Source of the DNA: Clostridia bacterium
GTDB taxonomy: Bacteria > Bacillota > Clostridia > Christensenellales > UBA1242
Assembly: GCA_017467585.1 (NCBI GenBank)
Contig: JAFUSR010000004.1
Coordinates: 77,918 to 141,917, forward strand
Length of the DNA stretch: 64,000 nt
Direction: 5' to 3'
This document shows, piece by piece, positions 3,001 through 26,588 of the stretch; the first letter of the stretch is position 1, and each line of letters starts with the position of its first letter. The notes under the pieces are model-generated. The model worked only from the letters and a program-made list of their open reading frames with translations, did not search any database and was not told the DNA's origin. Made by a program: the position numbers and the translations under genes.

Positions 3001-6000
3001 GGACAGCAAAGAAATATAATATTACTGTTTATGCATATGACAAAACAACCATTGTTGAAACATATTCAAAAGTTCTTGAATTTGACACAAGTTACGAGGG
3101 TGTTAAACTTATCAACAACCTTTCTAAATATGCTAGAGTAGGTTACACCTTAGTTAAGTTCTATACCCATGAATCAGGTGCTAGATCAAAAGAAATGATT
3201 GATGCAAATGGTTATGCAATACCAAATGCAGTAAACGGCAATGGAACAACAATCTTTAACGCAAATAGTGTGTTCATTGTTGAAACAGATGTTATTGTTG
3301 ATGCAACTTACACTGCAAACAGTTACACACTCACTCTCGACGGAAACGGCGGAACAGTTGGCAGCAACACAACCTCAACAAAGAGTGTTGTTTATGGTCA
3401 AACTTACACCGACCTTCCAACACCAACCCGCACAGGTTACACCTTCGGCGGCTGGTATTACGACGTAACCGGCTCAAAATATATCAACCTTGGCCGTGAA
3501 TATATGTACACCAACAAACTCAGTGTACATGCAATGGCTTACAGCGAAAATTGGGCAAATTATGGTCCGTATACTTATTCTCGCATGCTTTCATCAACGG
3601 CTAGTGGTGGTTTCTCATTGGGTGGTGAAGACTCAGCAGGACGAATAATTTTTGAAATTTGTGCAAATGGAGGGTATAAGGCTTTTGCCTACGATGTAAC
3701 CAGCTTATCTGCTGGCTGGCACACATTTGACCTTGTTTATACTGGCTCAGTTCTCTATGGCTATGTTGACGGAGTGCAGGTTGGTTCAAGAAATGTTGGT
3801 TCATACCCAATTGTTTACAACGCAACCAACTCGATTTTTGTTGGCGCGGAAGCTAGCACCAGCCCAACTTCACCAGAATCAGTCGCTGAAAATAGTGGTT
3901 TTGTTGGAAATGTTATCATTTCAAACACAGACACAAGAATTGCTCACAACAACAACACAATCACTGCGCCTGCACAAAATGCTACACTTTATGCAAGATG
4001 GACAGCCGACACTTACACCGTTGCATACAACAGCAACAAGCCAGCGCAAGCCTTCACTTCTGTTAGCGGAACAGCCGCTAACCAAACAGCAACCTACGAC
4101 GCAGCACTCACAGCACGTGGTGCGCTTAGCCTCACAGGCTTCACTTTCGCCGGCTGGAACACAAAAGCCGACGGCACAGGCTCTAACTACGCCGCAGGCG
4201 GCACAATAACAGCTGCAACAATCAACAGCTGGTATGCAGAGTCTGGCGTGGGCAAGGGCGGCACAAAGACACTCTATGCTAAGTGGACAGAAAACACTTA
4301 TAACATTACATTTGCGAGCGTATATAATGCGTTCACCGTTAAAGTTGCTCGTTATGATGGTTCAAACCCAACAGAATATACTGTTGATAGTTCTCACTTG
4401 ACAATTTCTGGAATTAGATTTACAGACATTGTGGTTACGGGAACTGCAAACGTAAGCAAGAGAATAGACAACTCAACCGCAATTAGCCCAGCACTCACAA
4501 CCACAACTGCTCCAAGTAGAACAGGCTATAGACTTGGTAATAAAGACAATGAAAATGTAAGGTATGAACATACAAACTATAATCCAGAAACGAGAAGGTG
4601 GACTTGGCAAACTGATGCAGAATGGACAGTTAATGCTGCCAACTCTAATACAGGATGCATGGCATTTGTTGGATTATGTGTAAATAATGGAGATACAACT
4701 ACATTAACAATTAAATGGGCTCCAATCACCTACAACGTTGTGTTCAACAAGAACGCAGCTAGCGTTGGCCACACCGACAGTCAAGTTTCTGGCACAATGG
4801 CTAACCAAACCCACACTTACGACGCAAGCCTTGCACTTTCTGCAAACACTTATGCGCTTTCTGGCTACACATTTGTTGGTTGGAACACAGCAGCTAACGG
4901 CACAGGCACACACTATGCCGACAAAGCTTCTGTGAAGAACTTGTCTTCAACCAAAAATGCAAACTTCAACCTTTACGCAGAGTGGCGCGCTAACTATTAT
5001 GCAATTTCTGTTGTTGCAAACGGCGGAACACTCACATTCGCTCATGGCACAAGCAGCACATATTCTGTTAGCACAACAGGCACACTCTATGCAAAATTCG
5101 ACAGCACAAACTTATATTACGCAACAACCAAGCCAAACTATGTTGGCGACGGAACAACCGTTAGCCAAGTTTCTGGCTATACCTCAGCTAAAACAGGTTA
5201 TAGCTTTGTAACTCTTGGCAACGAAACCTATTATGTTGCTGCTGCAAGCGGCACAATTACAAATGCAAGCGGCGCAAGCAAGGCTTACACCACAGCTGGC
5301 GCAAGCACATTTGAAGCAAATTGGTCAATCAACCAATATACACTTTCAATTGTTAACCGCTATCAAACAACAACCTACACAAGCGGCGCACTCACCTGGG
5401 CAACCGGCGAAACCGGTGGCCACGGAACAGGCGCAGGAAAATATAACTATCACACAAAACTTTCAACAGTCATCGGAAACGTTACCGAAACAGGCTTCAC
5501 ATTTGCCGGATTCTACACCACAACAACCATCACCGACGCAAACAAACTCTCAGAAGACGCTGTTCTCGAAGACGCCGACCTGACTATCTATGCTGCGTTC
5601 TATCGCAACAGCTATTCTATTAGCGTTTCTGGCCTTAACGCAGTAACCACAACCGGAACAAGCAGCACAAGCCTTGTTGCTGCTGGCGGCTCGGCAAACG
5701 GCGCTCCAAACGGCGCAAAAGTTTATTACGGCGACACAGTAACCTTCACAATTGCAAGCAAAGAGGGTTATACCTTTGCTAGTGCAACCGTTAATGGCGT
5801 GGCTCTTACCATGTCTGCAGTAAGCGGACAAACCCGCACCCACAGCGGAAGCTTTGTTGTTAGCGGAAACAAGATTCCTGCTTCGGGCAACACAATCACC
5901 TTGACATATGTTGTAAACGCAAACCCATATAAGGTTGCTTACAACACATGGAACGGAACAAAGGTTGCCGAAAGCGATCATGTTGTGAACGTTCCTAAGA

Positions 6001-9000
6001 ATCTCACAACCTATGCCGCAATCAACGCCCTAAATAACAACGCAAACGTTCTTGTTGTTAATGGTTGGGACTTCGCTGGTTGGGCAACAACCGCTCACAA
6101 CTCTTCAAGAATGGGCACTGTTGTTTACACCGACGGAAAACAAGTTACCGACCTCACCAAAACAGCAAACGCAGTTGTTAACCTCTATGCAACCTACACA
6201 GCAAAATCTTATGCAATTAGCTATGCGCTCGCTGGCGGAACAGCCGGAACAACAGCTCCAACTTCTTACACAGTTAACGAGAGCTCAGCTCAAAACTTGA
6301 CTCTTAGCGAGCCAACCAGAACGGGTTACACCTTCACTGGCTGGACTTCTAGCAAGAACTCAAGCGGAATTGCAAACATTGCAAAGGGAGCAGGCAAGAT
6401 TGTTATTGCTGCGCTCACTTATGGCGACGTTACACTCACCGCAACTTGGGCTGCAAACTATTATGTTGTTAACATTGACCTTAACAGTGGCAACAGCATG
6501 ACATTTGCATATTCTGGCGGAAGCTACGCATTCGACGGCAGCGCCACAAGCAAGATTTACACCCGCTATGCAAGCAACAAGTTCTTCTATGCTGCAACAG
6601 CTCCAACATATGTTGGCGACGGCAAAACAGTTAACGAAATCACAAGCATCAGCGCTGCAAGAACTGGCTACACAGTTGTTGGAATGGCTCTTGGCTCAAC
6701 CAACGTAACATATTCTAGCGCAACACTTGCCAGCGCATTTGCAGCAACATCTTCTGCAACACTCAAACCAACCTGGGCTGCAAACTTCTATCACCTTGCA
6801 ATTGACCTTGCAAGCGGAAACAAACTTGTGTTTGCATTTGAAGGCGGCTCATATGAGCTCACCACTAACATTGCAGCCGCAAACAGCAAACTCTATGCTC
6901 TTTACGACAGCAACACACTTTATTATTCAGACACAGCGCTCAGCTATAACCTTGGCGTCAGCCCTAAGGCAATCAGCGGCATCAGCGGAACAAGAACAGG
7001 TTACACCCTCAGTGGTGCAAACGTTGGTTCAATTGCTGCCACTCTTGCAACAGGCAAGCTCGCAAGCGCATATAAAACCGCAGCTGCTGGTTCTGTTGCC
7101 GCAACATGGCAAATCAACAGCTACACACTCACCGTTAACAACCAATATATGAACCTTTCTGGCGCATATGTTAACGGAACAACCGGTGGTTATGTTGGAA
7201 GCAACGCAACCGCCCACAACAAAACACAATACACCGCTCAGGTTAACTACAACACAAGCCTTGAGTCTTATTTGACAGCACACGCTGCCACAGGCTTCTC
7301 TTTGGCTCAAATTGTAACAGCATCTGGAACAACTTACACAACAAGCAGCAAGATGCCAGCAAACGCTCTCACACTCTACGCTAAGTTCAGCAGAAATGTT
7401 TATACAGTTTCTGCAACTGGCTACACACAGAGCCTTGCAAACGCCGTTAACGGTGTTGCCACCTACGACGTTGCAACAACTGCAAGCATTGGTGGAACAT
7501 TTGCCCGCAACACAAGTGTTACTGCATATTATGGTCAGTCAATCGCAAACCTTTATAACGTAACTCCTGCCACCGGCTTTGACTATGCCGAGGTTGTTGG
7601 AAAGAGTGGTGTTACAAATGGCACAATCACTGGCAACGCAACACTCGAAATTCATTTCACAAGAAAGGTTGTCGAGGTTGACCTCAGCTATAACACAAAA
7701 TACATCAACGGAACAGGCGTAACGCTTGAAAACGACGGCGTTAAGGTTGTAACCGCAAACAAGAAATATCTCATCGCATTTGGCGCGAGAGCGCTCTTGA
7801 CCGTGGTAACTCAAAAGGGTTACGACGTTGAAGACGTCAAGTTCAACAACACAAGATATCAAGAAATGAGCAACTGGGTTCAAAGCGAATATAACCAGAC
7901 TTACGACAACTATATCTACACTTATGAAATTGTGTTCGACAGCGTTTATACAACTGTTCTTGCCATCGACATTTCAGGCAAGGCAAACAGCAACATGCCA
8001 TATCAAGTGTTCGCCGAATATCAAAACGTTGCGCAAAACGGCTTCGACGAAACAAGCGTGGGTTCGTTTACTGGTGCATCTGATCAAATAATCACAATTT
8101 CTAGCATCATTTCTGCAAGAAACCTTGCGCGCGAAGGCTTTACTTACGCCGGATTTAAAGAAAACAAAACAGCTTCTAGCTATTCTTCTGGCGAATCAAT
8201 AACAATTTCAAACCAAGGCGATTCAAAAGTATACATTTACTTCACACGCGACACTTATAACGTAACATTTACCAACTATGGCGTTGCAAACGACGGCTTA
8301 ACAAGTTACGAACTTAAAACTGTTGGCAGTGGCGTAATCTATAACAGCTCAACCGGCGCCTACAGCGTTGTGTTTGGCGCAAACGTTACATTTGCTGCTG
8401 TTATCAAAGCAGGTTACAACCTTGCCAAGATCACAGTGGACAGCACTGGCACAGCCCGTGATGTAACAAGCCCATTCACATTCAACGTAACTGTTCCAAC
8501 CGTTTCAAACAAGACCTACAAAATTGGCATCTACGTTTATGCAAACCCATACACAATCACACTCACTCAAGACGGAACTGGCGTTAAACCAAGCAACATG
8601 ACTGCTTCAATCACCAAGGGTGCCGAGACTCACAATGTTAACTTTAACGTTGTTGTTTCGAGCTTAGCTAGTGTTCCAACCGTTTCACCTGCTGGATGGG
8701 TGTTTGCCGGATATTATTCAGACAAACTTGGCGCAGGAACAAAAGTGTTCAACGCCGATGGCTCTGTTGTTGCAAACGCTTCGGGCTTCACCGCAAGCAG
8801 CAAGTGGGCAAAGGCCGGTGCAGCCACACTCTACGCTCACTACACACCAAAGACCTATTCGGTTGAATATTATGCATACAACGGCGGAAATGCCCTCAAG
8901 ACCGACACATTCACCTACGACGCTGGTGGAAACCTTTCTGCTGCAAGCACAATGAGTGCACTCACCATTGCAGGCTTCAACTTTAAGGGTTGGGCAACCG

Positions 9001-12000
9001 CAAGCGGAACAAGCCGCCTTGGCGACATTGTTTACACAAATGGTCAAGCCTTTGGCAACAAAACAACAACTCAAGGCCAAGTTTATAAACTATACGCTCG
9101 CTACACCGCAGCATCATATTCAATCACCTATGCTCTAAATGGTGGAACTCATGGCGCAACACACCCAGCAAGCTACACCGTTAGTGAGTCTGCTCAAGAA
9201 CTCACACTCAGTGCTCCAAGCAGAACAGGTTACACCTTTGCTGGCTGGTCTAGCGACAAGACAGGCAGCGGCGTTCCTAACATTTCTGCAAGCGCAGGAA
9301 AGATTTCTATTGCCGCACTCACTTCTGGCAACTTGACACTCTCTGCCAACTGGACAGCGAAAACATATAGGTTATATTGGAACGCAAATGGTGGAACATA
9401 TAACAACACCGGCTGGGGCTCTCAATGGAAAGCAGAAAACGGAGTATATTACTTGGCCGTAACATACGACGTTGTTACAACCAGCTATTTGAGTCTTAGT
9501 AGTAGTAATAATGTAACAAGAACAGGTTACACTGGCACAGGCTGGTTCACTGCAGCAAGTGGCGGAACAAAAATTCACAATGGTGCAACCACAGATGGTT
9601 ATGTTGCAAACACCATATTATTCGATGCAAACAAGAAGTGGATTTATGACGGCAACTACACAATCTATGCTCAATGGACTGCTAACACCTATACAATCAC
9701 ACTTGACGTAAATGGTGGAAATGCTCTTTCATCAAACACAAAGAGTGTAACATATGGACAAACATATACTGACCTTCCAACCCCAACCCGCACAGGCTAC
9801 ACCTTTGGCGGCTGGTATTACGACGTTTCAGATGCAACCAAATATGTCAACATGGGTCGTGAATATATGTATACAAACAAGATTAGTATACATGCAATGG
9901 CTTATAGTGATAACTGGGCAAACTATGGCCCAACTTACACCGATTCAACAGTGGTATCATGTACAGAAACAGGTGGCTTCACTATTGGTGGTGGTGGAAG
10001 CGCAAAGGGGAGAGTAATATTCTCGGTTTATGCAAATGGTTCTTATAGAACTTATACATACAATGCAAGCAGTTTATCTGCTGGTTGGCATACCTTTGAC
10101 CTTGTTTACACTGGTTCTGTTGTTTATGCATATGTAGATGGAACACAAGTTGGAACAGTAAATGTTGGCACATACCCAATTGTTTATAACGCAACCAACT
10201 CAATCTTTGTTGGTGCGGAAACAAGTTCAAGTGCAACGGGTGTTGAATCAGGCTGTGCAAATTCAGGCTTTGTTGGAAATGTTATCATTTCAAACACAGA
10301 CACAAGAATTGCTCACAACAACAATGCAATCACTGCTCCTGCACAAAATGCAACACTCAAAGCTCGTTGGATACCAAACCCATACACCTTGACTCTCACT
10401 CAAGACGGAACTGGCGTTAAACCAAGCAAGATGAGCAGCACAATTTCTGCCGGCACTGCAAGCGTTAACCAAACTTATGACGCAGACTTTGTTAAACCAA
10501 GCACTCTTCCTAGCGCAGCAGGTTGGAGCTTTGCTGGTTACTACACCGACAAACTCGGCGCAGGCACAAAAGTTCTTAACGCCGACGGAACACGCAACAC
10601 AGCCGTTACAACCTACATTAACGCATCTAACAAGTGGGTTTATGCAAACAACCTCACACTCTACGCTCACTACACTCAAAACAGCTATGGCGTTACATTT
10701 GTTGGCAACTTCACTGGTTCAACCAGTGCAACATTGCCAAGTCCAAACCCAGCAAGCTTAACCTTTGACAACGTTGTCAGCGGAACCTACACCGCATCTG
10801 CCAAGGGCTACACCTTTGGTGGTTGGTACGCCGAAGCCGGTTGCACAAACCAAATCTTTGGCGCAAACGGAAAGGTTATTGCCGGAAAGACCGTTTCTGG
10901 CACAAAATATACCGGAGCAAACGGCGAGTGGGTTAAGGCATCGGCTACAAACCTTTACGCTAAGTGGACAGCCAACACAATCACCATAACTCTAAACAAC
11001 GGCAGCCTTGCTTATGCAACACCAAGCGCAAACAGCACAACAACTGCCACATTTGACCAAGCCAAGAGCGTAACTCCACCAACAGTCAGCCCAGCAGGCT
11101 ACACCTTTGGCGGATATTACCTCGAAAGTGGCTTGTCAACACAACTCTTCACCGCAGCTGGCGCACTTGTTAAAAACGTTAGCAAGAGTGGAGTTGCTTA
11201 CACATCTAACACCGACACAGTTAAGTGGATTTTCGACAACACCGACCACGCACTGACTGTTTATGCTAAGTGGACAGCAAATTCTTACACAATCACCTTC
11301 AACACCAACTACGAAACCTACGAGGTTGTTGGCGTAACCACCGCAAGTCAAACAGTCAATTCAAAAGCCGTAACCTTTGGCACAACAGCCATAACCTTTG
11401 CAACAGCTCCTGTTGCAACCTGCGACGCAGTTGGTTATGACTTCCTTGGCTATTACACTCAAAAGACTCAAGGAATCAAGCTGTTCAACACCGACGGCTC
11501 AATGGTTACAACTGGCGACGCAGCCGCATATTTCGCAGCAAGCGGCAACAACGTTTATTACAAACACGCTGGCAACATAACCGTTTACGCTCATTGGAAC
11601 GTTAAGAGCTTTACTCTTACATACGCTTCTAACAAGCCAGCAAACGCTTCTGGCGGAATTGTTACCGTTGGCACAGCAAGTCAAACAATTTCGTTTGTCG
11701 ACACATTCACTGTGGCAAACGCAACCAACATGTTCACACTCACCGGTTGGAGACTAACCGGTTGGACAGCGAGCGACGGAAAGACCTATACATTTGGTCA
11801 ATCTGTTCAATATCTCGACCACAACTTAACCCTGACTGCTGTTTGGGCAGCCAACACCTACACAGTTGTGTTCAACTCAAACAAACCAAGCGACGCAAGC
11901 TCAGACGTTACCGGAACAATGGCAAACGAGAGCTTTACTTACGACGCTGGCGGAAAGGCGCTCACCGCAAACGCATTTGCCATCACAGGCTGGACGTTTG

Positions 12001-15000
12001 GTGGCTGGGCAACAACCGCAACCGGAACAAAGGTTTATAATGACAAACAAAGCGTTTCAAACCTCACAAGCACTCATGGAGCAACAATCAACCTCTATGC
12101 AATTTGGAGCGCAAATTCATACACAGTTAGCTTCGCAGCAAACGGCGGAACAATCACATGGCAAGACTCAACAAAAACCACAATAGCGGCAAAATATGAC
12201 GTCGTTTACCAAATTTCGACAATAGTTTCGTCAATTGCGCGCACTGGTTACACCTTCACCGGTTGGAAGATAACCGCCGGCCTAAACGCAGAAACAGCCA
12301 AGAGCGGAACAAGCGCAAGCGCAGTAACAACCGCAATTGCCGCAAGCACATTGCTTCCAACCGCAAGCTACTTCAAGAATATCACTCCAACAAATAGCAC
12401 AGCGGTTACATTCACCGCTCAGTGGAGCGCAAACTCTTACACAGTTAACTTCGCAGCAAACGGCGGAACAATTTCGTGGAAGACAAGTGGCGTAACCACA
12501 ATTTCGGCAAAATACGACACCGAATATCAAATTTCGGCATATGTTTCTGGAATTTCACGCACAGGCTACACCTTCCGCGGATTCAAGGTTACTGCAGGAC
12601 TCAACACCTCAACCGCTAAATATGGCACGGCATCTGGCAGCGTAACCACAGCAATTGCTGCAACAACCTTGCTTTCAACTTCACACTACATCAAAAATAT
12701 CAACCCAACAAATGGCGCAAGCGTAACCCTCACTGCAGAGTGGAGCGCAAACTATTACGCAATCACAATTGCCCTCAACAGCGGCAGCAAAATCGACTTT
12801 ACTTATGGCTCAAGCACCTACAGCGCAACCGCAAACGGCGTGAGCGACAGAATTTACGCAAAATATAACTCAACCGAGCTATACTTCTCGTCTGCTTCTC
12901 CAGTTTACGACGGCGACGGCAAGGCCGTAACCAAAGTAACCAAAATACTCGCAACACGCACGGGCTACACCAACACTGGCGCAAGCCTTGGCTCAATTGG
13001 TGTTAACATTTCAACCGGTGCTCTTGCTAGCGCCTACGCAACTGCCGGAACAAGCACACTCACACCAGCGTGGGCAGCAAAATATTATGCAATAACAGTG
13101 GACGCAAACGGCGGCTCATTGACCTTCTCTTATGGAACAAGCTCAACCTACACAGTAACCACCGCAAACGGCACAATTTATGCGCAATATAACAGCAACA
13201 AACTTTATTACGCCGCAGCAAACCCAGTTTATGCTGGCTATGCATCAAGCGGAAACGCAGTTGCTTACGAAATTTCGGGCATCACAAACTCAAGAACTGG
13301 CTACACCTTGACAAGCCTTAGCGGCACTGGCGCAACAGTTGACGTAACCACTGGCGCAGCCGCAAAAGTTCTTCACTCGGCTTACATAACCGATGGGGCA
13401 GGCAGCCTCACCGCCGGCTGGACAGCAAATGTCATCACCGTTACTCTCAACAACCAAAGTGCAACAAGTGCTGGCACAACAACTGTTTATTATCGTTATC
13501 AAACAGCCGAGTATTACACAACATACTCAAATGGCACACTTTCTAACAAGATAACCTCAATCACAAAGCCAACACGCAATGGCTATGCCTTTGGTGGTTA
13601 CTTTAAGTCAACTGGCGGCAGCGGAACACAATATATCGCAGCCGATGGCGGCTTCATGAACAACATGTATAGTTCAGAAAGCGCAAACCTCACACTTTAC
13701 GCTAAGTGGACACCATATAAGTTGACAATTCGTTATCACCTTAATGGTGGAACAGCAGTTACAGGAAATGATGGTGGATTCTCCAATAGCGACCCATCAG
13801 CGAGCGATGTTTATAACTATGGCGCATCTATGTATGACTATGGTTTAACTGATGCAAATTCTAGCAGAGTAACTCGCACTGGTTACACAATTAAATCTGG
13901 TGCAAACATGTATAACACCAAAGCTAATGGCAGTGGCGTTAACATTTCTTGCGACATTCAATACACAATCGGTGGAGCAAGCAACGACATTTTGGCACTC
14001 ACCGGAACAAACATGAACACCGGCAACGCAACTCTCGACATCTATGCTCAATGGACCGCAAACACTTACACTGTTACGGTTGATGCAAATGGCGGAACAA
14101 TTCCGGCAACCAGTGGCTGGACAGTGGCTTCTGGCAGCGCAACCGCAACCAAGAGCGTAACTTACGACGCAGCCTATGGCACTCTGCCTTCACCAACCCG
14201 CACAGGTTACACCTTCCTCGGCTGGCGCGGTAAGAACTTATTGAATATCAACGACATGTTGAATAGTGCTCTTGTTTCTAATGGGGACGGCACTTACACA
14301 ATCACAAAAGGTTCTGAACGAATTTCAGGCTCAACAGCTTATGATATACCAGGTGAAACACATATCGTTGTTTCATTGGTAATTGATGCACAGAATAATT
14401 CGCTTAGTACATATTGGCTTGATGCTGAAGGAAAAGACTATTATCCAGGTTTGTCTTGGACAATTCCTAGTGGCAAGACCATGAAAACTTTCAGAATATA
14501 TAAAGAAGCTTCATTTGCAGCAGGCTCATACACAACATTCCACAACTTGATGCTTGAAATTGGCGACACAGCAACTGCCTATGAACGTTATTACGTTCTT
14601 GGCACAGACCCTGTTCACCAGGCTAAAAACCACACACTCACTGCGGCATGGGCAGCAAACAAATATAGCGTTGTGTTTAACGCCAACAAGCCAGCACAAG
14701 CCTTCACTTCTGTTAGTGGAACAATGGCTAACCAAAGCTTCACTTACAACGAAGCCGCAAAGGCACTCACCGCAAATGCATATAGCCTCACAGGCTTCAC
14801 ATTTGCCGGTTGGAACACAGCAGCCAACGGCAGCGGCACAGCATATGCCGACAAGGCAAGCGTCCGCAACCTGACCGCCAGCGCAAACGGAACAGTTAAC
14901 CTCTACGCTCAGTGGACCGAAAACACCTATAACATAACCTTCGCCAGCGTTTATAACGAATTTAAGGTTGTTGTTGCAAGATATGACGGAACAAGTCCAA

Positions 15001-18000
15001 CAACCTACACAATCAAATCTGGCAGCTTAACAATAAGCGGCATTAGATATACCGATTTAATTCTAACAGGTGGAGGAACAATATTTAAGAGAGTAGATAA
15101 TTCAACAACAATTTCTCCTGCTGTTTCTGGAGCAACCGCTCCAAGTAGAACTGGTTATGACTGGGGCAAGTTGAATGGCAATAACATTAACGTTAAATGG
15201 GCACTATCTAACACCAATGGCGGTTATCGTGGTGGTGGTGGAAACTGGGGCAGCAACGGAACAGGCGTAAATACAACAAGTGACGTATGCTTTGTTGGTC
15301 TTAACTATACCAACGATGCAACCGTAACAATGACTCCACAATGGACAGCCAAATCTTACACCCTCACATTCAACGCTAACAAGTCTAGCTATTCAAGCAT
15401 GAGCGGAACTCCAACTCAAACCGCAACAAGCGCAACAGTAACCTACGACGCAACCACTTCTCTCACAGGCGCATATAAGGCCAGCGTAACCGGTTGGACC
15501 TTCGGCGGATATTACACCGCAGCCACCGGCGGAACACTTGTGTTCGACAGCAATGGCTATGTTCAAGCATCAGTTTCTGGCTTCACCAACGCAAGCAAGG
15601 CATGGATTGGCACCGAAAACAAAACCGTCTATGCCCACTACACCGCCAACACTTACACAATCACACTTGCTCCAAACGGCGGACAAGTAACAGGCCTTTC
15701 AGCAACAAGCGGTTGCAGCGTTGCAACAGCTAACAGCAAACTCACACTGACCTACGACACAGAGGCCAAGTTTGCCATAACCATCGTTCGTGTTGGTTAT
15801 GCCTTCACCGGCTGGACACAAAGCGGAACAGCAGGCACATTCACAAGTGGAACATATAACTTAGGTAACGACAAACACTCATATGTTGGAACAACAACCG
15901 CTAAGAATTTGGCTGCAAGCGGAAACATTACCATAACCGCTGGCTGGTCAATCCGCAGCTATACACTCACACTCAACGCAAACGGCGGAACAGTTGGTGG
16001 AAACACATCAACAACCAAGAGCGTAACTTATGGTCAAACCTACACCGACCTTCCAACACCAAGCCGCACAGGTTACACATTCGGTGGCTGGTATTACGAC
16101 ATCAGCGGAGCAGCCGCAAATGTTGTGAACTATGGTAGAATTTATAACTACGAAGACAAACTCAGTGTTCACATGATAGTTTACGGAAGCGGAGCAGGTA
16201 GATTTATTTCTAGCACCGAAGGTGGCGGCTGGCAACTTACACCAGGCGGAGTTCAATATGCCTTCGATAAGGGAGTAGGCTATAAAACAACAACCTTCAA
16301 CAATTTCCCAACAACATCTTGGTTCACCCTTGACATGATTTTTGATGGAACAAACATCAAGTATTATCTCAATGGAGTTCTTAAAGCAACATCTGAAAAC
16401 TTCACCAGCGGAAAGATTGGCTATCAAGCAACCAACTCATTGTTTGTTGGTGGCGAGCCAGGCACAAGCGCAACTGTTCTTGACTCAAGTTCTGGCTATT
16501 GGAGTGGCTACATTGGAAACCTTGTGATTTCTAACAACACAACACTTATAACAAGCGCAAACAACTCAATCACAGCGCCTGCGCAAGACGCAACACTCAA
16601 AGCACGTTGGACTCCAAACACCTACACACTTTCATTCAATGTTAATGCTCCAAGTCACAAACTTCCAAACACTTCTGCAACACAAACCGCAGCAAGCAAA
16701 ACAGTAACTTACGACTCAACAAGCAACTTAACAACTGCTTACACCGCAAGCCTGACAGGCTTCACATTCGGCGGATATTACACCGCTGCAACTGGCGGAA
16801 CACAAGTGTTCACCGCAGCCGGCGCCGTAAACGCATCAGTTTCTGGCTTCACCAACGCAAGCAAGCAATGGATTGGCACAGAAAACAAGACAGTTTATGC
16901 CCACTGGACAGAAAACACTTATAACATCACCTTCGCAAATGTTTATAACGATTTCACAGTGAAAGTGGCTCGTTACGACGGCACCGGCGCAACCGAATAC
17001 ACCATCAACTCAAGCAACAAGACAATCAGCGGAATTAGATTCACTGATATTGTGGTTATTGGTAATCTTGTGGCAGTAAGCACACGAGTAGATAACACAA
17101 CTGCAATTAGCCCTGCAATTTCTAGCACGACTAACCCAAGCAGAACAGGTTACACATGGGGTATACCAGATAGTCAAAATTATAATTGCCCTGTATATGT
17201 TTCTGGAGCAACTGCAACAGGATATAAGATTGGCGCTTATGGTGAAAACAACTGGATGACAACTGCTGACTGGGGAACTGGTTATAACACAGTTGCCACA
17301 GGCTTTAGTGGTCTTAACCATAACAATTCTTCAACAGTTACATTAACTATTCTATGGACCCCAATCTCTTACACCCTCACCTTTAGCGGCAATGCGCCAT
17401 ATTCTGGTGCAACCGTAACTCAAACCCAAGCAAGCAGAACCGTAACCTACGACTCAAACAACAACCTCACCACAAACTATGTTGCAAGCTCAGCGGGTTA
17501 CACCTTCTTGGGTTACACAACAACTCAAAATGGCGACACATTGTTCACCAATTCTTCTGGTGCAGTTCAAAAATCTGTTAGCGGCTTCACAGACGCCAGC
17601 GGAAACTGGATTGGCACAGCGAGCAAAACAGTCTACGCTAAGTGGCAAGCCAACTCATATACTCTCACAATCAAGTTTATTGGCGCCGGCTTTGACGGCT
17701 CAACCAAGCCAACACTCGGCTTCTCGGCAACCTATGGCGGAACAAGCGCCGTTGCCGGAAACGTTACCGCTCCAAACGGGCAGGTAACTGTTGCCTCTGG
17801 CACAGCACTCACCGCATCAACAGCCACAACAACCGGAAAATTCAGCGCAACAACCTTGCAATATAACGGTTCGGCTGGCAGTGCAGACGGAACAAGCACA
17901 ATCACCGTAACAAAAACTCACGCATTCAGCGGAAACGTTGTTGTTACCATTTCTCTTGCGGGCTATTATGTTAAAATTGGCGGTGTTCCAACGGTTAGCG

Positions 18001-21000
18001 ACAGCGTTGGTTCAACTTCGTACACCTGGAACGCACAAGCAAACGCTTCAGTCAACGTTTATGCTTACAAGCGTTACACAATTTCTTACGCTGCAAACAG
18101 CGCAGTTGCTTCTAGTGGCTCGTTTGACCCAACATACAAAATCTATGGCACAGCCGCAACCCTCAAAACCAACAACTGGACGGCAACAGGCTACAGCCCA
18201 GCTGGCTGGACAATCGAAGACGGCGTTTTGGTTGATTCAACCGACCCAAGATTCCGTGCAAACGGCTATTCTTACACCACAAACGCAGACTTAGAACTTT
18301 ATGCAAACTGGAGCAACAAAACGTTCACTCTTCTGTTTATGCAAGACAACGACGATCAAAACAACGGCATTAAGCCAACAGGCATGAGTGGCGCAATAAC
18401 CAAGGGCACAACCAGCATGACGGTTACCTTTGCTGGCGCAGTTGGCGCAATCGCCAGCCTTCCAAGCGTAACGGGCTGGACATTCCAAGGCTATTACACG
18501 GGAACTCTCGGCGCAGGTGCAAAAGTGTTTGACGCAAACGGCACACCAGTGACAAACGCAGGCCAAGGTCAATATATCACCTCAGACGGAGACTGGAATT
18601 ATGCGCTTCCAGAAGGCGTAAACCAACTCAAACTCTACGCATATTATAAGGCAAATACATATTTTGCAGAATATGAAGATTTGTATAAGAACTTTTCACT
18701 TGGTTCATATCAAATAAATGGAGGCGGTTCATGGGCAACTAGCACAACAGGTGGAGTAAAAACCATGACCTTTACTGCAGCTGGTGCTTCTACAAATCAA
18801 TGGAGTGGTCCAGTTATATCAGGCTTTGGTTCACTTCTTACCGTTGGACAAAAATATAGACTTTCGTTCACTGCAAAAACAAGCAAGAATATGACAATCA
18901 CTAATGCTGGTTTCGAAGGCGGACAAGTTAGTGCTTATGGTTCTTGGTTCTCATTAAGTACCACAACCACAAATCAAGATTTCCACGTAGACTTCACTTA
19001 TACGGCTAGCAATAATGGATCTGCAAACTTGGTATTCTATTGCAACAGTTGGGTGGCTGGTGATACACTTACTATCACGAACATTAGACTTTCTAAGATT
19101 GTTGAATATGATTCAGTTTATGGCGACCTGTTCACCCCAAGCAAAACGGGTTACACCTTCCTCGGCTGGCAAAACATTCCGCTCGACTATCAACCAGTTG
19201 AGTACATTCAATCAACCGGCACACAATGGATTGACACCGGATTTGTTGACACAGTAAACACAAAAGTTGAAATCGACATGCAATTCACAGACCTCACTGT
19301 TCAACAACGCTTGTTTGGTCATGGCTATGATGAAGACACCGGAACTAACGTTTCATTTGAATCTTACATAAATGGTTCAGGACAGTTTGCTTGGGCAACT
19401 AAAGATGGTATTGGACAATGGCAAGCATCAACCATGGCAGCCGACACAAACAGACACTTGTTTATGTTGACTAACAATATTTATGCAATAACCACAAATG
19501 GCACAACAAATTACTTAGGTGCAAGTGGTACTCATGTTACAAGAGCAAACACAGACAAGTTGACATTATTGCATAGAATTGGATCAGGTTCAAATCATAA
19601 TGCAAAAGCTAAACTTTATGGCTGCAAGATATTCGACAACGGAACAATTGTTCGTGACTTCGTTCCTTGCTATCGCAAGAGCGATGGCGTTGTCGGATTA
19701 TACGACACCGTTAACGGCACATTCTACACCAACGCCGGCACTGGCACATTTGCTAAGGGCGCAGACAAGTATGTTACCAAAGACACAATTGTTTCGTCTC
19801 TTGCCAACCACACACTCTATGCCCGCTGGCAAATTAACACTTACACACTCACAAACAACGAGGGCTATTGGGTAACTTGCCACGACACAGACGCAACTCT
19901 TCGCGTTAAAACAAACGACAGTTCAAGTGCAACAGTTACAACCTATAACTCAAGCAATGTTGCTCAAGCAACTCAAACAGGCGCAGATGTTTCAGTGACA
20001 CTCAAGAAGGGCGAATACTTTAAGATTACTCACACATATAGCACAACAACAACGGTAACTTGGACAATCACAAGAACAAACACCAACAGAAACTATATGG
20101 TTTGGGCTTATGACGGCGGCTCTGCTGCGGACAATGCCCACAGCGGAACATGGACTCCAACAGCCAATGCAACTCGTGAGCACTACATTCGTGAATATGT
20201 TAACTTCACTGCTGTTGCAAAAACAGGAATTCAATCTGCAACAAGAAATGTCGCTTATGCCCCAATGGATGTAACCTGGAGTGGTTGGCTTCCAACCTTC
20301 ATTGCAACCGCAAAAACTGGCTATACCTTTAAAGGTTGGTACACAACTAGCGATGGTTCTGGCACAGCAGTAAGCACAAGCACAACTTATGCACTTACAA
20401 GAACTCCTGCAAACGACTTGACACTCTATGCCTTTGCAACTGCAAACACCTACACAGTGGCTTACCACAAGTGGAGCGACGACAGCAGCGCAACCGCTGT
20501 TGCAACCAGCACCCACACTTACGACACTGCTAAGGCGCTGACCACCTATGCCGCAATCAACGCGCTCAACAATAGCGCAAACGTGCTTAAAGTCACTGGC
20601 TACACCTTTGCCGGTTGGGCAGAGGTTGCTCACACAAGCACAAAGACTGGCACAGTTAAATATTCTGACGGTCAATCTGTCAACAATCTGATGGCCAGCG
20701 GAACAAAACACCTGTTCGCAACCTACACAGCCGACACATTCACAATTGCATTCAACGGCAACAAGCCAAGCGGCGCATCTAACAATGTTGGCGGCTCAAC
20801 AGCTAGCGTAACAGCAACTTACGACAGCACTCGCAGCTTAACCGCAAACGGCTTCACCCTCACAGGTTGGACATTTGCTGGCTGGGCAACAAGCGCTAGC
20901 GGCAGCGCAACCTATGGCAACAGCGCAACGCTCACAGCCGCTCAAGTTAACAGTCACTACGACTCAGTTGGCAAGGGAGGAACACTTACACTCTACGCTA

Positions 21001-24000
21001 AGTGGACTCAAAACACTTATTCTGTTAAATTCAACAGCAACTACCCAACTTGGGCAGTTGGAACAAGTGGTTCAATGGCTAACCAAAGCTTTACTTACGA
21101 CGCCGCAGCAAAAGCCCTCACTGCAAACGCATTTAAAGCTGCAAACGCAACCTTCACTGGTTGGGCAACATCTGCTAGTGGCAACGTTGTTTACTCTGAC
21201 AAACAAGCAGTTCAAAACCTTGCAACTAGCGGAACATTTAACCTCTATGCGCAATGGGCAGCAGCAACCTATAAGGTTGAATATAGCATGGGCAGCTGGA
21301 CTCGCCAAAACACTGGCACTCTTGCAACAGGCTATACCTATAGCTCAACAAACAACCAAGAACTTAATGTTGGCTATGCAGTTAGAGCAGGCTACACCTT
21401 TACTGGTTGGTCAATCGCTTGGAGCGACGCCGCAAACAACACCGGCGCAACTGGCGCAATTTCTAGCACATACGCTTCTGTTTCGGGAACTGCTGGCTCT
21501 AACAACACACTTGTTGTCAACAAGCAGACCTACGGAAACATTGTGCTTTCTCCAACCGGAAACGCAAACAGCTACACCGTTGTGTTCAACGGCAACAAGC
21601 CAAGCACCGCTTCTAACAACGTTGGCGGCACAATGGCTAACCAAAGCTTTACTTACGACCAGTCTCAGGCTCTCACAGCAAATGCATTTAGCCTCACTGG
21701 TTGGACATTCACTGGCTGGGCAAGAAGCGCTGCTGGTGCTAAAGAATTCAACAACGAGCAAACTGTTTCTAATCTCACAACAACAGCAAGCGGAACTGTT
21801 AACCTTTATGCTGTTTGGTCAGAAAACACTTACATCGTTGAGTTCTACACATGGAACGGCACAAAGGTTGCTCACCAAGGCTATTCTTATGAAGAAAGTA
21901 AGAACCTCGCAACCTACGCTGAAATCAACAACAAAACAACATCTGTTGTAACCATGGACGTAACCACAAGCAACGTTCTTGTTGTAACTGGCTACACCTT
22001 TGCTGGTTGGGCAACAACTGCTCACACAAGCGCAAAGACAGGCACGGTTGTTCACACCGACGGCAAGTCTGTTTCTAAGCTCACAGCAACCAACGGCGGA
22101 ACAATTAAGCTTTATGCTACTTACACCGCCGACACTTACACAATTGCATTCAACGGCAACAAGCCAAGCGGCGCATCTAGCAACGTTGGCGGCTCAACAG
22201 CAAGCGTAACTGCAACTTACGACAGCACTCGCAGCTTAACCGCAAACGGCTTCAGCCTCACCGGTTGGAGATTTGCTGGCTGGGCAACAAGCGCTAGTGG
22301 CAGCGTTGTTTATGCAAACGGCGCAACACTCACAGCCGCTCAAGTTAACAGCCACTATACTTCAGTGGGCAAGGGCGGAACACTTACTCTCTACGCTCGT
22401 TGGAACGCAAACACTTACACCGTTGCCTTCTACACATGGAACGGCACAAAGGTTGCTTCACAAGGCTTTGTTTACGACACAGCTAAAAACCTTGCAACCT
22501 TTAATCAAATCAACAGCAAGGATACATCTGTTGTAACCATGGAATCTGGAATTGGCAATAACTCACTTGTTGTTAATGGCTGGAAGTTTACTGGTTGGGC
22601 AACAACCGCTCACAACTCAACAAAGACAGGCACAGTTGTTCACACAAACGGCAAATCTGTTTCAACATTAACTTCAACCCACGGAGCAACAGTTAACCTC
22701 TATGCAACATACACACCAAACACTTACACAATCGTAAACGAGATTGTTGCTTCTGGTCTTGCTGCTAGCGACTTTGCCGTTAGCGGAATGAAACCAATTC
22801 TCTCTAGCGGTCAACTTAACAAAGTTACCGACGCTTCTAACGTTGATTATCGCAATATCAACAACCTTGCAGTAACCTTAAAGCACAACAACGGCAGCGG
22901 AAACATGGCAACAACCACAAACAGAACCGTTAAAACAGGTTACAAAGTGGGCTATGACCTTGCTTCAGCTTCTAGCAACCTTTATTACGACGGCAACAAC
23001 TCACTTGCTAAACTTGTTATGGTTTACACCGTTGCAGGAACAAGCAATCTTGCATGTGTTGAAATTTCTAGCAACAACCTTCCAGATGTTAATGCAGCCG
23101 ATGGCAGCAACATTTACTTCATTGTTTGCGCAACACTCAAACAATACACACTTTCAATGAACATCAAAGACAAAGCTGGCTCATCGAATGCTCCTACTGA
23201 TTCTTATAGCTACACACTGAAATCTTCAACATATTCAGATCTCTACACCAGAAACGCAGGTTCTAGCGTAACAAAAAGAACTCTTGCCGCAAACAACAAG
23301 TTCTATGCTGGCGAAGCTGTTGAAGTTACTCTTTCTGCAGCAACAAGCAGTGGCTATTACATTTATAACCAGGTTATCGAAAGAACCGGCTCTAGCGACA
23401 CAAACCCAACAACAAGAGCAACTGGTCCTGCCGCTTCTGCAAGCTTCACAACAAATTCAAGAACAACCAACTTCGAAATTTATGCTCAAATTGCTGTTGC
23501 AACACTTACAATCAATGTGACCGATTCAGACAATTCAAACGCATATAGCAAAGAATATGGTTGGAACGACACTGTTGCCTTCACCGGAACATGGAAGAAG
23601 GGTTCAACAAACGACACAACATTTGGAACATACTTTGCTGCTCGTGACAGCCAAGCTAAAATTGTTGCGGCACTCACCGGAACAATGATTATTGGCAAAG
23701 TTAGCGGAAGCAAGAACTATGCAACTGCCTACGCAACCGCTCGTGCTGCTTCTAACAACTTGTGGACAAGCTTGAACAACCTTCCAAGTGGAAAGGTTAG
23801 CGAAATCTTCAGCTTTATTGGAACAAAGGTTAATGGTGGAACGGCTTACACAGCCGCCAACGGCACAATTGTTATGAACCTAACTGCAACCTTCTATCAC
23901 AAGATTTCTCTTGCAATCACTTATAACGTTCAAAGAGATGTCGTAAGCAAAGATAACGTTGCAAACATCTATACACAAACACTTTATTCAACAACCGAAA

Positions 24001-26588
24001 CAACCGCAAACAACTATCAAGGCGAAACATTTAACTATGCTGCAACAACAGCAGAACTTATCAACAACTCTGCAATTAATTCAGTTGTTAGCACATCTGT
24101 TTCTAGTGGTGCTTCAATTACTAAGGTTGATGCAAAAACCTTGAAGATTGTTTACACAACTTCAACAGCTAATGTAACCAGCGGTTCTGCAACGGTTAAA
24201 AACGACCCAATTTATTCAACAACAACGCTTGAACACTTAATCAGTGTAGATACTCAGGGTGCTGCAGAAGTTCACTTATACTTGCCAATCAAGAACGCAA
24301 GCGGAAAGATTCTCTATGTTCTTGACTTTTCAAACCAAGAGACTGGCGTTGACTATAACAGAACAGACTTTGCAACAAACACAAGCTCTTCAAATGGCAG
24401 CCTGGCTCTTTATAGCAGACAACAGAGCCACAAGACAACTCTTCGCTCAATCACAATTTTGGGCAAATCAATCACCAATTCAACCTATAGTTGCACAATT
24501 AATTCTGTTGTGTCTAAGATAGGTAATAAGAACGGTGGTAGTGGACTTACAAACTTCAGCTTTATCACTTATTGGGATAAAGACTATGCAGTTTCTGTCA
24601 ACTCATATTATTACTTCTATAATTTGGCATCTGTTAAACTTGGTGGCTCAGACATTGTTGGAGCAAGCAACAAGGGCATTTCAACCAACAAGCACAGATG
24701 GGGCAGTGGAACATCTGCTGTTGCATACACAACCAACAACGAATCTTCTAATGTCACAACCAACATCTATAACGCGGGAACTTACACCAACGGCAGTCTG
24801 ATGAACAAGACTCTTGCTGTAACAACCTCGTTCTCTACCTACGGAACAATTAAATATTCTGGTTATAACAGAACAACACAAACAACCGGTGTTGTTGCAA
24901 CAATCGAATATATTTCTAATGGTTCTAGCGGATTCTACAACAACGGAACATTCAACCTTTCTGCAATTTCAGATGACCTTTCTAGTCAAATGATCTTAAC
25001 TGGCTACACCAACTCTGCAACCGATGGACTTGGAGTTTGGAACTTGAACACAAACTACACAGTTTGGAGAATTCTCGCAGCAGTAATTGCAATCCAAGGC
25101 GACTATGACGTTGCAAAAGCAGATGCACAAATTCAACTCCGCGCTAACTACGAATTGTCTTCAGTATGGCTTTCATACTCAAATGGCAATGGTAAAGGCT
25201 TTGGTGAGATGGATACTTACGCATCTTCAAGCTCAAGCATAACAGTTAAGAGAAGCGCAACCGATTTGCAAGACGCAATCGACTTCTATCTTGCAAACCT
25301 TAACAGCTCAGATTGGGGCAAGGTTGCAACCCTCACAATCTATAACAGTGGTGTTGCTCTCTCTGGTGGCTTCACATTGTCTAAAGCTCTAGTTATGACA
25401 AGCGGAATGCAACTCACAATCACAACCAGACACGGCAAGGTTGTTGGCACAGGCACAGGCAAAACAACAACAATCGATGGCGGAACTCCAGCAAGAGAAA
25501 CAATCAAAATTGCTGGCTCAATCAGCATGACAGGTGCTGCTGGATTCTTCGATGTTAAGAGTGGCGCAACTCTTGCATTCACCAACATCGACTTTGATGT
25601 TGCATCATTTGCCGCAGGAACAGCAACCAAGATGTTCAACATTGGCGGAACTCTGAACATCAACAAGTCAACCAGCGGAACCGACGCAAACATCTCTAAC
25701 GACGGTGCAACTGGAACATCAACAACAGCCTACAGAACAAAAGTTACTGGTGCAACACCAGGCGGCTCAGGAATTGTTCTGTTCTATGCAAGTGGCGATG
25801 CCGCAAAGATTAACGCAGTTAACATCAACATTTCAAATCTCAAACCTGGCAATACATCTAGCACAGATGTTCTCAGAAGCATATTCGTTATCGATGGTGG
25901 TGCTCACACATTCAAGAATATCAGAATCGCTGGCGCAAGCTATGTTGGCCCAGCAATTGCAGTCAACAACACCTCAACCGGAACCGACAAAACTGTTACA
26001 TTCGAAAATGTTGTGTTTGCACCTAGTGGATACACGGAGCTCTCGTATATCGAGAGCACCGGCACCCAGTATATTAATACCGGCATAACTTCAATACCTG
26101 CTCCGTTTTCTATAGAAATCACATATCTGAAATCTAACACTAATACAAACGATCAATGTTTGTTTGGAAGCAGGCAACTTGGTAAATTTGTGAACATATA
26201 TGGTAATTATTATGAAACAGCTTTTGGTAATACTGCCTCAAATACAGCTAATGGAGATAATAACACACATACTATTTTATGTGACAGTACATCTGGGTTC
26301 TATAAGGATGGGACAAAACTAGCTACATCTTACAGCACATTAGCTAGTCGCAGTTCAACACAACCAGGGCTAATTTGCGCATTCACCGAAGAGGAATCGT
26401 TTTCGCCAAAATGGTTTTTCGTAGGAAAGATATACTATGTGAGAATAATTGTAGATGGGAAAATGTTCCACGACTTTATTCCTATGAAGCGCAATAGCGA
26501 TGGCGCAATTGGCCTCTACGACGCCGTAACCGGCACATTCTACACCAACGCTGGCACGGGCACATTCATCGCCGGCCCCGAAGTGTAA
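3..26588 (+). CDS. Giant surface-type repeat protein, 5-prime partial (more than 8,861 codons in the window). Mostly Listeria-Bacteroides (InlB B-repeat / Flg_new-type) repeats with nested accessory domains.
   Basis: One stop-free frame runs from window position 3 to TAA at 26586-26588. The ORF-track Met at 66 is internal: the same frame reads ...[22 protein letters not shown]... upstream with no stop. Many tens of roughly 65-75 aa units carry the signature Y-x-[IV]-x-[FY]-x-x-N-G-G ... P-[ST]-R-x-G-Y-T-F-x-G-W ... L-Y-A-x-W. The C-terminus (...[18 protein letters not shown]) has no LPXTG or hydrophobic anchor. Confidence 0.9.
   Translation, partial: [8861 protein letters not shown]
696..1130 (+). 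repeat. Intragenic module M, copy 1 ([50 protein letters not shown]...)
   Basis: One of four copies of a roughly 145-aa module. The first roughly 85 aa are conserved and the last roughly 55-60 aa are unrelated between copies. Confidence 0.8.
3315..4010 (+). other. LamG/concanavalin-like domain nested inside a Listeria-Bacteroides repeat, copy 1
   Basis: The host repeat opens [47 protein letters not shown] and closes [15 protein letters not shown] about 190 aa later. The insert (...[16 protein letters not shown]...[25 protein letters not shown]...[10 protein letters not shown]...[10 protein letters not shown]) has the pattern of LamG-type lectin-fold domains. The fold is assigned by pattern recognition only. 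Confidence 0.6.
4287..4725 (+). repeat. Intragenic module M, copy 2
   Basis: [52 protein letters not shown]..., followed by a copy-specific segment. Confidence 0.8.
9681..10375 (+). other. LamG/concanavalin-like nested domain, copy 2
   Basis: Paralogous to 3315-4010. It shares a 56-nt perfect match (3900-3955 = 10269-10324). The host repeat opens [45 protein letters not shown] and closes [14 protein letters not shown]. Confidence 0.6.
14227..14625 (+). other. Roughly 130-aa beta-sandwich-like insert nested in a repeat ([36 protein letters not shown]...[19 protein letters not shown]...HTLTAAW)
   Basis: It interrupts a host repeat at the same place as the LamG-like inserts, between GYTFxGW and the closing xLxAxW strand. 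I do not recognise the family and the fold is a guess. Confidence 0.4.
14916..15350 (+). repeat. Intragenic module M, copy 3
   Basis: [52 protein letters not shown]..., followed by a copy-specific segment. Confidence 0.8.
15950..16620 (+). other. LamG/concanavalin-like nested domain, copy 3 (divergent)
   Basis: The host repeat is [47 protein letters not shown] ... [15 protein letters not shown]. The insert is ...[26 protein letters not shown]...[25 protein letters not shown]...[10 protein letters not shown]...[10 protein letters not shown]. Confidence 0.55.
16908..17360 (+). repeat. Intragenic module M, copy 4
   Basis: [52 protein letters not shown]..., followed by a copy-specific segment. 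Confidence 0.8.
18655..19100 (+). other. CBM / galactose-binding-like domain candidate
   Basis: The segment [88 protein letters not shown]...[25 protein letters not shown] resembles CBM4/9-type sugar-binding modules. This is a pattern-level call only. Confidence 0.4.
19185..19760 (+). other. 'YIxSTGTQ ... [19 protein letters not shown]' domain, internal copy A, nested in a repeat
   Basis: ...[32 protein letters not shown]...[34 protein letters not shown]...HTLYARW. It is flanked by the two halves of a host Listeria-Bacteroides repeat. Confidence 0.7.
22740..26020 (+). other. Non-repetitive roughly 1,100-aa region of the giant protein, including a probable right-handed beta-helix-like stretch near 25400-26000
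   Basis: No GYTFxGW/LYAxW periodicity is visible after about 22740. The segment ...[23 protein letters not shown]...[31 protein letters not shown]...GGTLNINKS...[10 protein letters not shown]...[10 protein letters not shown]...VTFENVVF has the short alternating-strand look of parallel beta-helices. Confidence 0.45.
26025..26585 (+). other. 'YIxSTGTQ ... [10 protein letters not shown]' domain, terminal copy B
   Basis: [21 protein letters not shown]...[37 protein letters not shown]. It shares both terminal motifs with copy A, but the core is diverged. Confidence 0.7.

Follow-up and report, generated by a model that had tools for sequence, protein, structure and literature searches.

The 64,000-nucleotide stretch of a Clostridia bacterium genome analysed here (contig JAFUSR010000004.1, positions 77,918 to 141,917; referred to as the window) carries on its forward strand the 3' part of a gene for a giant protein built mainly of Listeria-Bacteroides (Flg_new) repeats. 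We consider it very likely that five of these repeats, all in the distal stalk of the protein, are split: each encloses a whole domain and is completed by a closing strand beyond it, so that the enclosed domains would be displayed sideways as heads with a presumed ligand-binding function. The nested units were located with a repeat hidden Markov model (HMM) made from canonical repeats of the 18,684-residue protein. They lie at nucleotides 3312-4001, 9678-10370, 14055-14651, 15951-16610 and 18648-19829 of the window, that is, residues 1104-1333, 3226-3456, 4685-4883, 5317-5536 and 6216-6609 of the part of the protein encoded there. The N-terminal half of each unit is that of a Flg_new repeat, ending in P-[ST]-[RK]-T-G-Y-T-F-x-G-W (GW below). 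It is followed by 123-197 extra residues, and the closing strand, reading TLYARW, TLKARW, TLTAAW, TLKARW and TLYARW in units 1 to 5, adjoins the start of the next repeat. GW and the closing tryptophan lie 142-220 residues apart in the five nested repeats, compared to 26-53 in the other repeats of the protein.

Among about 2,000 repeats in 151 proteins the same distance peaked at 20-40 residues and never fell at 60-79. An apparent class of inserts of 90-120 residues in this set turned out to consist of two adjacent repeats, the first with a weak closing strand, and was rejected as nesting. Residues 1891-2164 of the full protein, upstream of the window, were considered as a further nested unit but proved to be divergent tandem repeats. 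Exactly five units nested after GW were found in all 18,684 residues, none of them in the N-terminal half; they occupy positions 10927-16432, in the distal 40% of the protein and away from its membrane anchor. An initial annotation of this DNA had reported such interrupted repeats at five or more places; all five exist, within 15 nucleotides of where it had put them, its ranges for the LamG-like domains spanning host and insert together, and five is also the final count. It had described them as opening normally and closing after 130-200 extra residues. The first statement holds for units 1 to 4 and fails for unit 5, in which another insert, some 136 residues long, sets the first strand apart from the rest.

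The gene is a single open reading frame of 18,684 codons (G000:C2:48451-104505), of which the last 8,861 lie in the window (3-26588, forward strand). The frame stays open for 56 kb and takes up 5.8% of a 0.97-Mb genome with 37% GC. The protein starts with a transmembrane helix followed by BspA-type leucine-rich repeats (PF13306), after which about 80 Flg_new repeats (PF09479) make up the protein. Judged by its sequence, the host of the inserts belongs to the Flg_new / Listeria-Bacteroides family, since the curated model scored 242 bits on the first half of the window protein and 148 bits on the second (cut-off 27), its best stretch being the N-terminal half of nested unit 2, and TIGR02543 scored 24.6 on a nested unit against a cut-off of 20.95. 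A profile search of the PDB with the LamG unit matched its N-terminal half to the InlB B-repeat (2Y5P) and residues 50-210 to LamG chains. Few building blocks are commoner than these repeats in the large surface proteins of gut Bacillota, Bacteroidota and archaea, where they are usually annotated as inert spacers. The InlB B-repeat has been treated as a 'periscope' or spacer domain, and its β2 has been described as the site of a possible binding groove. It is a 70-residue β-grasp domain without the usual helix between β2 and β3 (PMC8900821).

The flanks of the inserts are the two halves of one repeat, as had been proposed, and four lines of evidence converge on this. First, the closing strands were scored with an end-anchored position matrix trained on 977 closing strands from other proteins, the background being 2,128 composition-matched positions in the inserts and in the non-repeat C-terminus. 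The five closing strands that follow inserts scored 11.3-29.1 bits, in the range of the canonical ones of this protein (9.6-25.5 bits), while the background did not exceed 2.9 bits; as they surpassed every background position, their resemblance to closing strands is more than chance. This matrix replaced a window-based score of the C-terminal part, which did not discriminate because its background windows contained real closing strands. Second, hosts were aligned with the canonical repeat profile by hhalign, local HMM scoring of spliced sequences having shown no discrimination on account of deletion penalties. With the insert removed, the LamG hosts (11 sequences) aligned over canonical columns 1-89 (98.2%, score 68.6), whereas the unspliced hosts, i.e. 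the N-terminal half with the residues directly following it, stopped at column 61. Hosts of the second insert family, named YIxSTGTQ after its motif (17 sequences), aligned over columns 29-89 after splicing (97.0%, score 51.3) versus columns 29-60 when unspliced (score 35.4). Third, 365 YIxSTGTQ domains retrieved from 114 proteins by homology search were sorted by their flanking strands. GW before and a closing strand after the domain were found together in 24 cases, GW alone in four and the closing strand alone in one, the remaining 336 domains having neither; this co-occurrence is highly significant (Fisher p = 2e-32). Fourth, AlphaFold2 modelled the LamG unit with a mean predicted local distance difference test (pLDDT) score of 90.7 and a predicted TM-score (pTM) of 0.89, the closing strand at unit residues 225-230 having a pLDDT >93. 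Unit 5 was modelled with a pLDDT of 84.6 and a pTM of 0.80 (84-91 for its closing segment). The closing segment of the LamG unit is moreover kept in 11 homologues, among which A229 and W231 do not vary.

The inserts are complete domains that also occur independently. Units 1, 2 and 4 contain LamG domains, as the initial annotation had recognized. Pfam Laminin_G_3 (PF13385) matched the LamG unit with E = 1.1e-6 and 29.3 bits (cut-off 27.6), and Foldseek, run on the model, returned laminin LG4-5, C-reactive protein (a pentraxin) and the neurexin LNS domain as top matches with a probability of 1.00. These LamG / concanavalin-like lectin domains match the inserts both in sequence and in predicted fold; they usually stand in line in their proteins, while here they are nested in a β-grasp repeat. 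The LamG domain begins about 4 residues past GW with its usual D-G-x-x-Y-V motif. In unit 1, the host N-terminal half (β1 to GYTFGGW, residues 1104-1151) at 3312-3455 is followed by a LamG (Laminin_G_3) domain at 3456-3950 and by the closing segment NNTITAPAQNATLYARW at 3951-4001 (24.8 bits). Unit 2, which provided the Pfam score and the model quoted above, comprises the host half at 9678-9815 (residues 3226-3271), the LamG domain at 9816-10319 and a closing segment ending in ATLKARW at 10320-10370 (18.1 bits), predicted to be a strand. Unit 4 has the corresponding parts at 15951-16091 (residues 5317-5363), 16092-16559 and 16560-16610, the last again ending in ATLKARW and scoring 18.1 bits, and as a whole shares 48-49% identity with unit 2. 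With identities of 75% and 48-49%, the three LamG units are paralogues, and for this reason the five places represent three insert families and not five independent events.

The YIxSTGTQ domain, a widespread and uncurated family of about 185 residues, is present in the window at 19170-19760, nested in unit 5, and at 25959-26585. It corresponds to no Pfam or NCBIfam family and to no significant PHROG, and tblastn gave no match to it in 50,697 phage records, so that a link to phages finds no support there. In proteins that lack Flg_new repeats the domain occurs as tandem arrays, with up to eight or more copies, which indicates that it folds independently. Foldseek related the model of unit 5 to the jelly-rolls of pentraxin, neurexin and agrin, pointing to a LamG/pentraxin-like fold. 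The C-terminal copy is not nested: no closing strand follows it, and the protein ends with ...GTFIAGPEV. The third family is represented by unit 3, in which the host half at 14055-14225 (residues 4685-4741) is followed by an orphan insert of 123 residues at 14226-14594 (RGKNLL...ATAYERYY) and by a closing segment ending in NHTLTAAW at 14595-14651. The orphan matched nothing in Pfam, PHROGs, NCBIfam, the sequences of the PDB or INPHARED phages, nor in the 935-2,975-residue length range of a set of 5.8 billion proteins. Its C-terminal end reads ...LMLEIGDTATAYERYY, similar to a motif with which some jelly-roll receptor-binding or carbohydrate-binding module (CBM)-like modules terminate; no search supported any relative.

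Unit 5 differs from the others in that it probably carries a second, CBM4-like insert in the turn between β1 and β2. Its successive parts are a putative first strand KANTYFAEYEDLY (18648-18686), a CBM4/CBM22-like β-sandwich of 136 residues (18687-19094), the segment KIVEYDSVYGDLFTPSKTGYTFLGW that ends in GYTFLGW (19095-19169), the YIxSTGTQ domain and the closing segment ADKYVTKDTIVSSLANHTLYARW (19761-19829; 29.1 bits). As KANTYFAEYEDLY looks like β1 and KIVEYDSVYGDLFTPSKTGYTFLGW like β2 to β3 of the repeat, the sandwich appears to be inserted in the β1-β2 'NGG' turn. This first insert had no Pfam match; in a Foldseek search with the two-insert model as a whole, the matches were a CBM22 tandem and CBM4 chains, with TMt 0.55-0.63. 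The same double-insert unit is present in protein P0231 with 35% identity to unit 5. In P0177, between residues 700 and 2000, the YIxSTGTQ domain occupies the β1-β2 turn four times, each time directly after a canonical β1. The claim that the insertion point always lies right after GYTFxGW therefore does not stand, and the Flg_new repeat has two permissive loops, the one after GW and, probably, the β1-β2 turn. The broader idea of a scaffold that displays domains from one permissive loop survives in part: the site after GW is used across proteins, but probably two loops, and three insert families, are involved here.

The suggested survey of other giant proteins bore out the use of the same insertion point in unrelated genomes, along with the second site just described. 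LamG domains are nested in Flg_new repeats with the same junctions in an Eggerthellaceae genome (L001), in a Clostridiales metagenome-assembled genome (MAG; L009), four times in P0018, twice in P0052 and in P0270. In a search of 1.84 billion proteins with the LamG unit, ranking by full-protein score was dominated by multi-repeat Flg_new proteins, and useful results came only from re-scanning the 150 proteins returned with an HMM of the insert alone. The LamG composite was absent from all 150 genomes sampled within the same order and is thus not a lineage trait. The YIxSTGTQ domain is nested after GW in at least 10 proteins, including P0152, P0158, P0176 and P0237, and P0152 (2,513 residues) is an array of nine Flg_new repeats in direct succession, all of which have this domain nested after GW. 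Two further unrelated inserts use the site, one of the P0135 type and one of the P0018-5441 type. At least five unrelated insert families (LamG, YIxSTGTQ, the orphan and these two types) therefore enter 1-5 residues after GW, which implies several independent insertions and supports the view that this loop is permissive.

Several observations weigh against our reading. Unit 3, a single sequence, stopped at hhalign column 70 after removal of its insert; it also has the weakest closing strand of the five (11.3 bits), so that the matrix is what speaks for its closure, and the libraries searched yielded no homologue of its insert with which to compare it. In the AlphaFold2 model of unit 5 the first strand remained unplaced (pLDDT 41). 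The predicted pairing of the closing strand with β1 and β3, as in 2Y5P, comes from DSSP, pLDDT and pTM values of models. LamG, CBM and pentraxin-like folds also have structural or protein-protein roles. Finally, the LamG units are paralogous and composites may move as whole modules, so that repeated use of the loop is seen across families rather than as five events in this gene.

This last point could be taken further, namely that the loop is not especially permissive and that a few ancient insertions gave fixed composites (Flg_new with LamG, Flg_new with YIxSTGTQ) that spread by duplication and shuffling. The degree of identity among the three LamG units, the identical junctions and conserved host N-terminal halves of LamG composites in other phyla, the array of nine similar composites in P0152 and the presence of even the double-insert unit in P0231 would all fit such a history. 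However, each of the at least five families found at the same 1-5 residues after GW needs an insertion of its own, and the YIxSTGTQ domain exists both autonomously and in the β1-β2 loop. We therefore regard inheritance of fixed composites as unlikely to explain the pattern by itself; it complements the split-repeat reading rather than excluding it.

Much less probable is an in-line architecture, in which an ordinary accessory domain would stand in tandem behind a C-terminally truncated repeat, the later TLxAxW arising by chance or belonging to that domain. Two matches could be read in this way: the repeat HMM carried the match of the N-terminal half 30 residues into the insert, to column 80, and the Pfam extension into the insert reached profile position 63 of 65, as if the repeat nearly closed before the insert. 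Both extensions are spurious because LamG starts about 4 residues after GW: the residues concerned are the first LamG strand (the DG..YV..G start, within the range 50-210 that the profile search gave to LamG), and the alignment of unspliced hosts by hhalign ends at column 61. The canonical scores of all five closings above every background position, the near-absence of a closing after YIxSTGTQ unless GW precedes it, and the conservation of the closing segment with its two invariant residues all speak against the in-line alternative. That collapsed or chimeric joins in the assembly of a highly repetitive MAG gene produced the apparent inserts is hardly credible, as the same junctions recur in independent assemblies from other taxa, the frame is open over its whole 56 kb and the inserts have precise boundaries and amount to whole domains.

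On the split-repeat reading, the chain would leave the repeat within 1-5 residues after the GYTFxGW strand, build an entire, autonomous jelly-roll domain (a LamG domain in three cases, the orphan and YIxSTGTQ in one each), and come back for the final 17-23 residues, the TLxAxW strand among them, and so complete the host fold. Because the N- and C-termini of such insert folds are adjacent, the inserted domain would project laterally as a head and leave the stalk unbroken. From the lectin-like fold class and the distal position we infer that the inserts are ligand-binding heads along the distal stalk, most likely for multivalent glycan binding. More tentatively, and with slightly more doubt than belief, we propose that the loop after GW, and secondarily the β1-β2 turn, is a general plug-in socket through which gut and environmental bacteria swap unrelated binding heads into giant fibres; split Flg_new repeats might then serve as a discovery rule for uncurated ligand-binding families such as YIxSTGTQ and the 123-residue orphan.

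A comparable design is known from RTX adhesins such as AhLap of Aeromonas hydrophila, FrhA of Vibrio cholerae and MpIBP of Marinomonas primoryensis, whose 'split domains' have budding ligand-binding domains (PMC12077191, PMC10865825, PMC5550230). In these proteins ligand-binding domains bud from Ig-like extenders, and being split has been used to recognize them (PMC12077191). The nested Flg_new units work like these split domains without being members of that system. In both cases a complete domain with adjacent termini (a CBM, a lectin or another presumed or known binding domain) interrupts a stalk or extender domain, after which the host fold is finished, and the heads would stand out laterally towards the distal end of a giant fibrillar protein. 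The host of the RTX adhesins is an Ig-like β-sandwich or an RTX β-roll, whereas here it is the β-grasp Flg_new repeat. RTX adhesins are type-I-secreted, with an RTX repeat region and a type I secretion signal at the C-terminus and the N-terminus held in the outer membrane, whereas the present protein is of the Bacillota type and has an N-terminal transmembrane helix and BspA leucine-rich repeats; no RTX repeats were noticed in it, and its C-terminus is a YIxSTGTQ domain. Binding by the RTX adhesins has been shown by experiment, whereas ligand binding is suggested here by fold class. The solved InlB B-repeats (2Y5P, 7NMS) are uninterrupted, in contrast to the present hosts, which match the repeat along its whole length after the insert has been taken out. 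In the literature consulted that names the Flg_new/Listeria-Bacteroides family, we found no description of nested domains for this repeat in titles or abstracts, although other literature may contain one. The split-domain design, known from other adhesins, may thus not have been described with the Flg_new repeat as host.

If this reading is correct, function in giant proteins of this kind lies not only at the tip but also in whatever interrupts a repeat, and the boundaries of expression constructs must include both host halves. Nesting also exposes several widespread domain families that are absent from curated libraries, and the parallel with RTX adhesins suggests convergent solutions in fibres of the Gram-negative and Gram-positive types.

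Two other regions of the window protein may be mentioned. The non-repeat region towards the C-terminus (22740-26020; 1,093 residues) had no Pfam match at E ≤ 1. A module of about 145 residues is present in four copies, approximately at 696-1130, 4287-4715, 14916-15344 and 16908-17357 of the window (residues 232-375, 1429-1571, 4972-5114 and 5636-5785 of the window protein). It resembles a Flg_new repeat enlarged in both insertion loops, after GW and between β1 and β2, with about 45 additional residues after the first strand and 40-55 copy-specific residues between a degenerate P-[ST]-R-[IT]-G-Y motif and the closing T-x-[QKL]-W strand.

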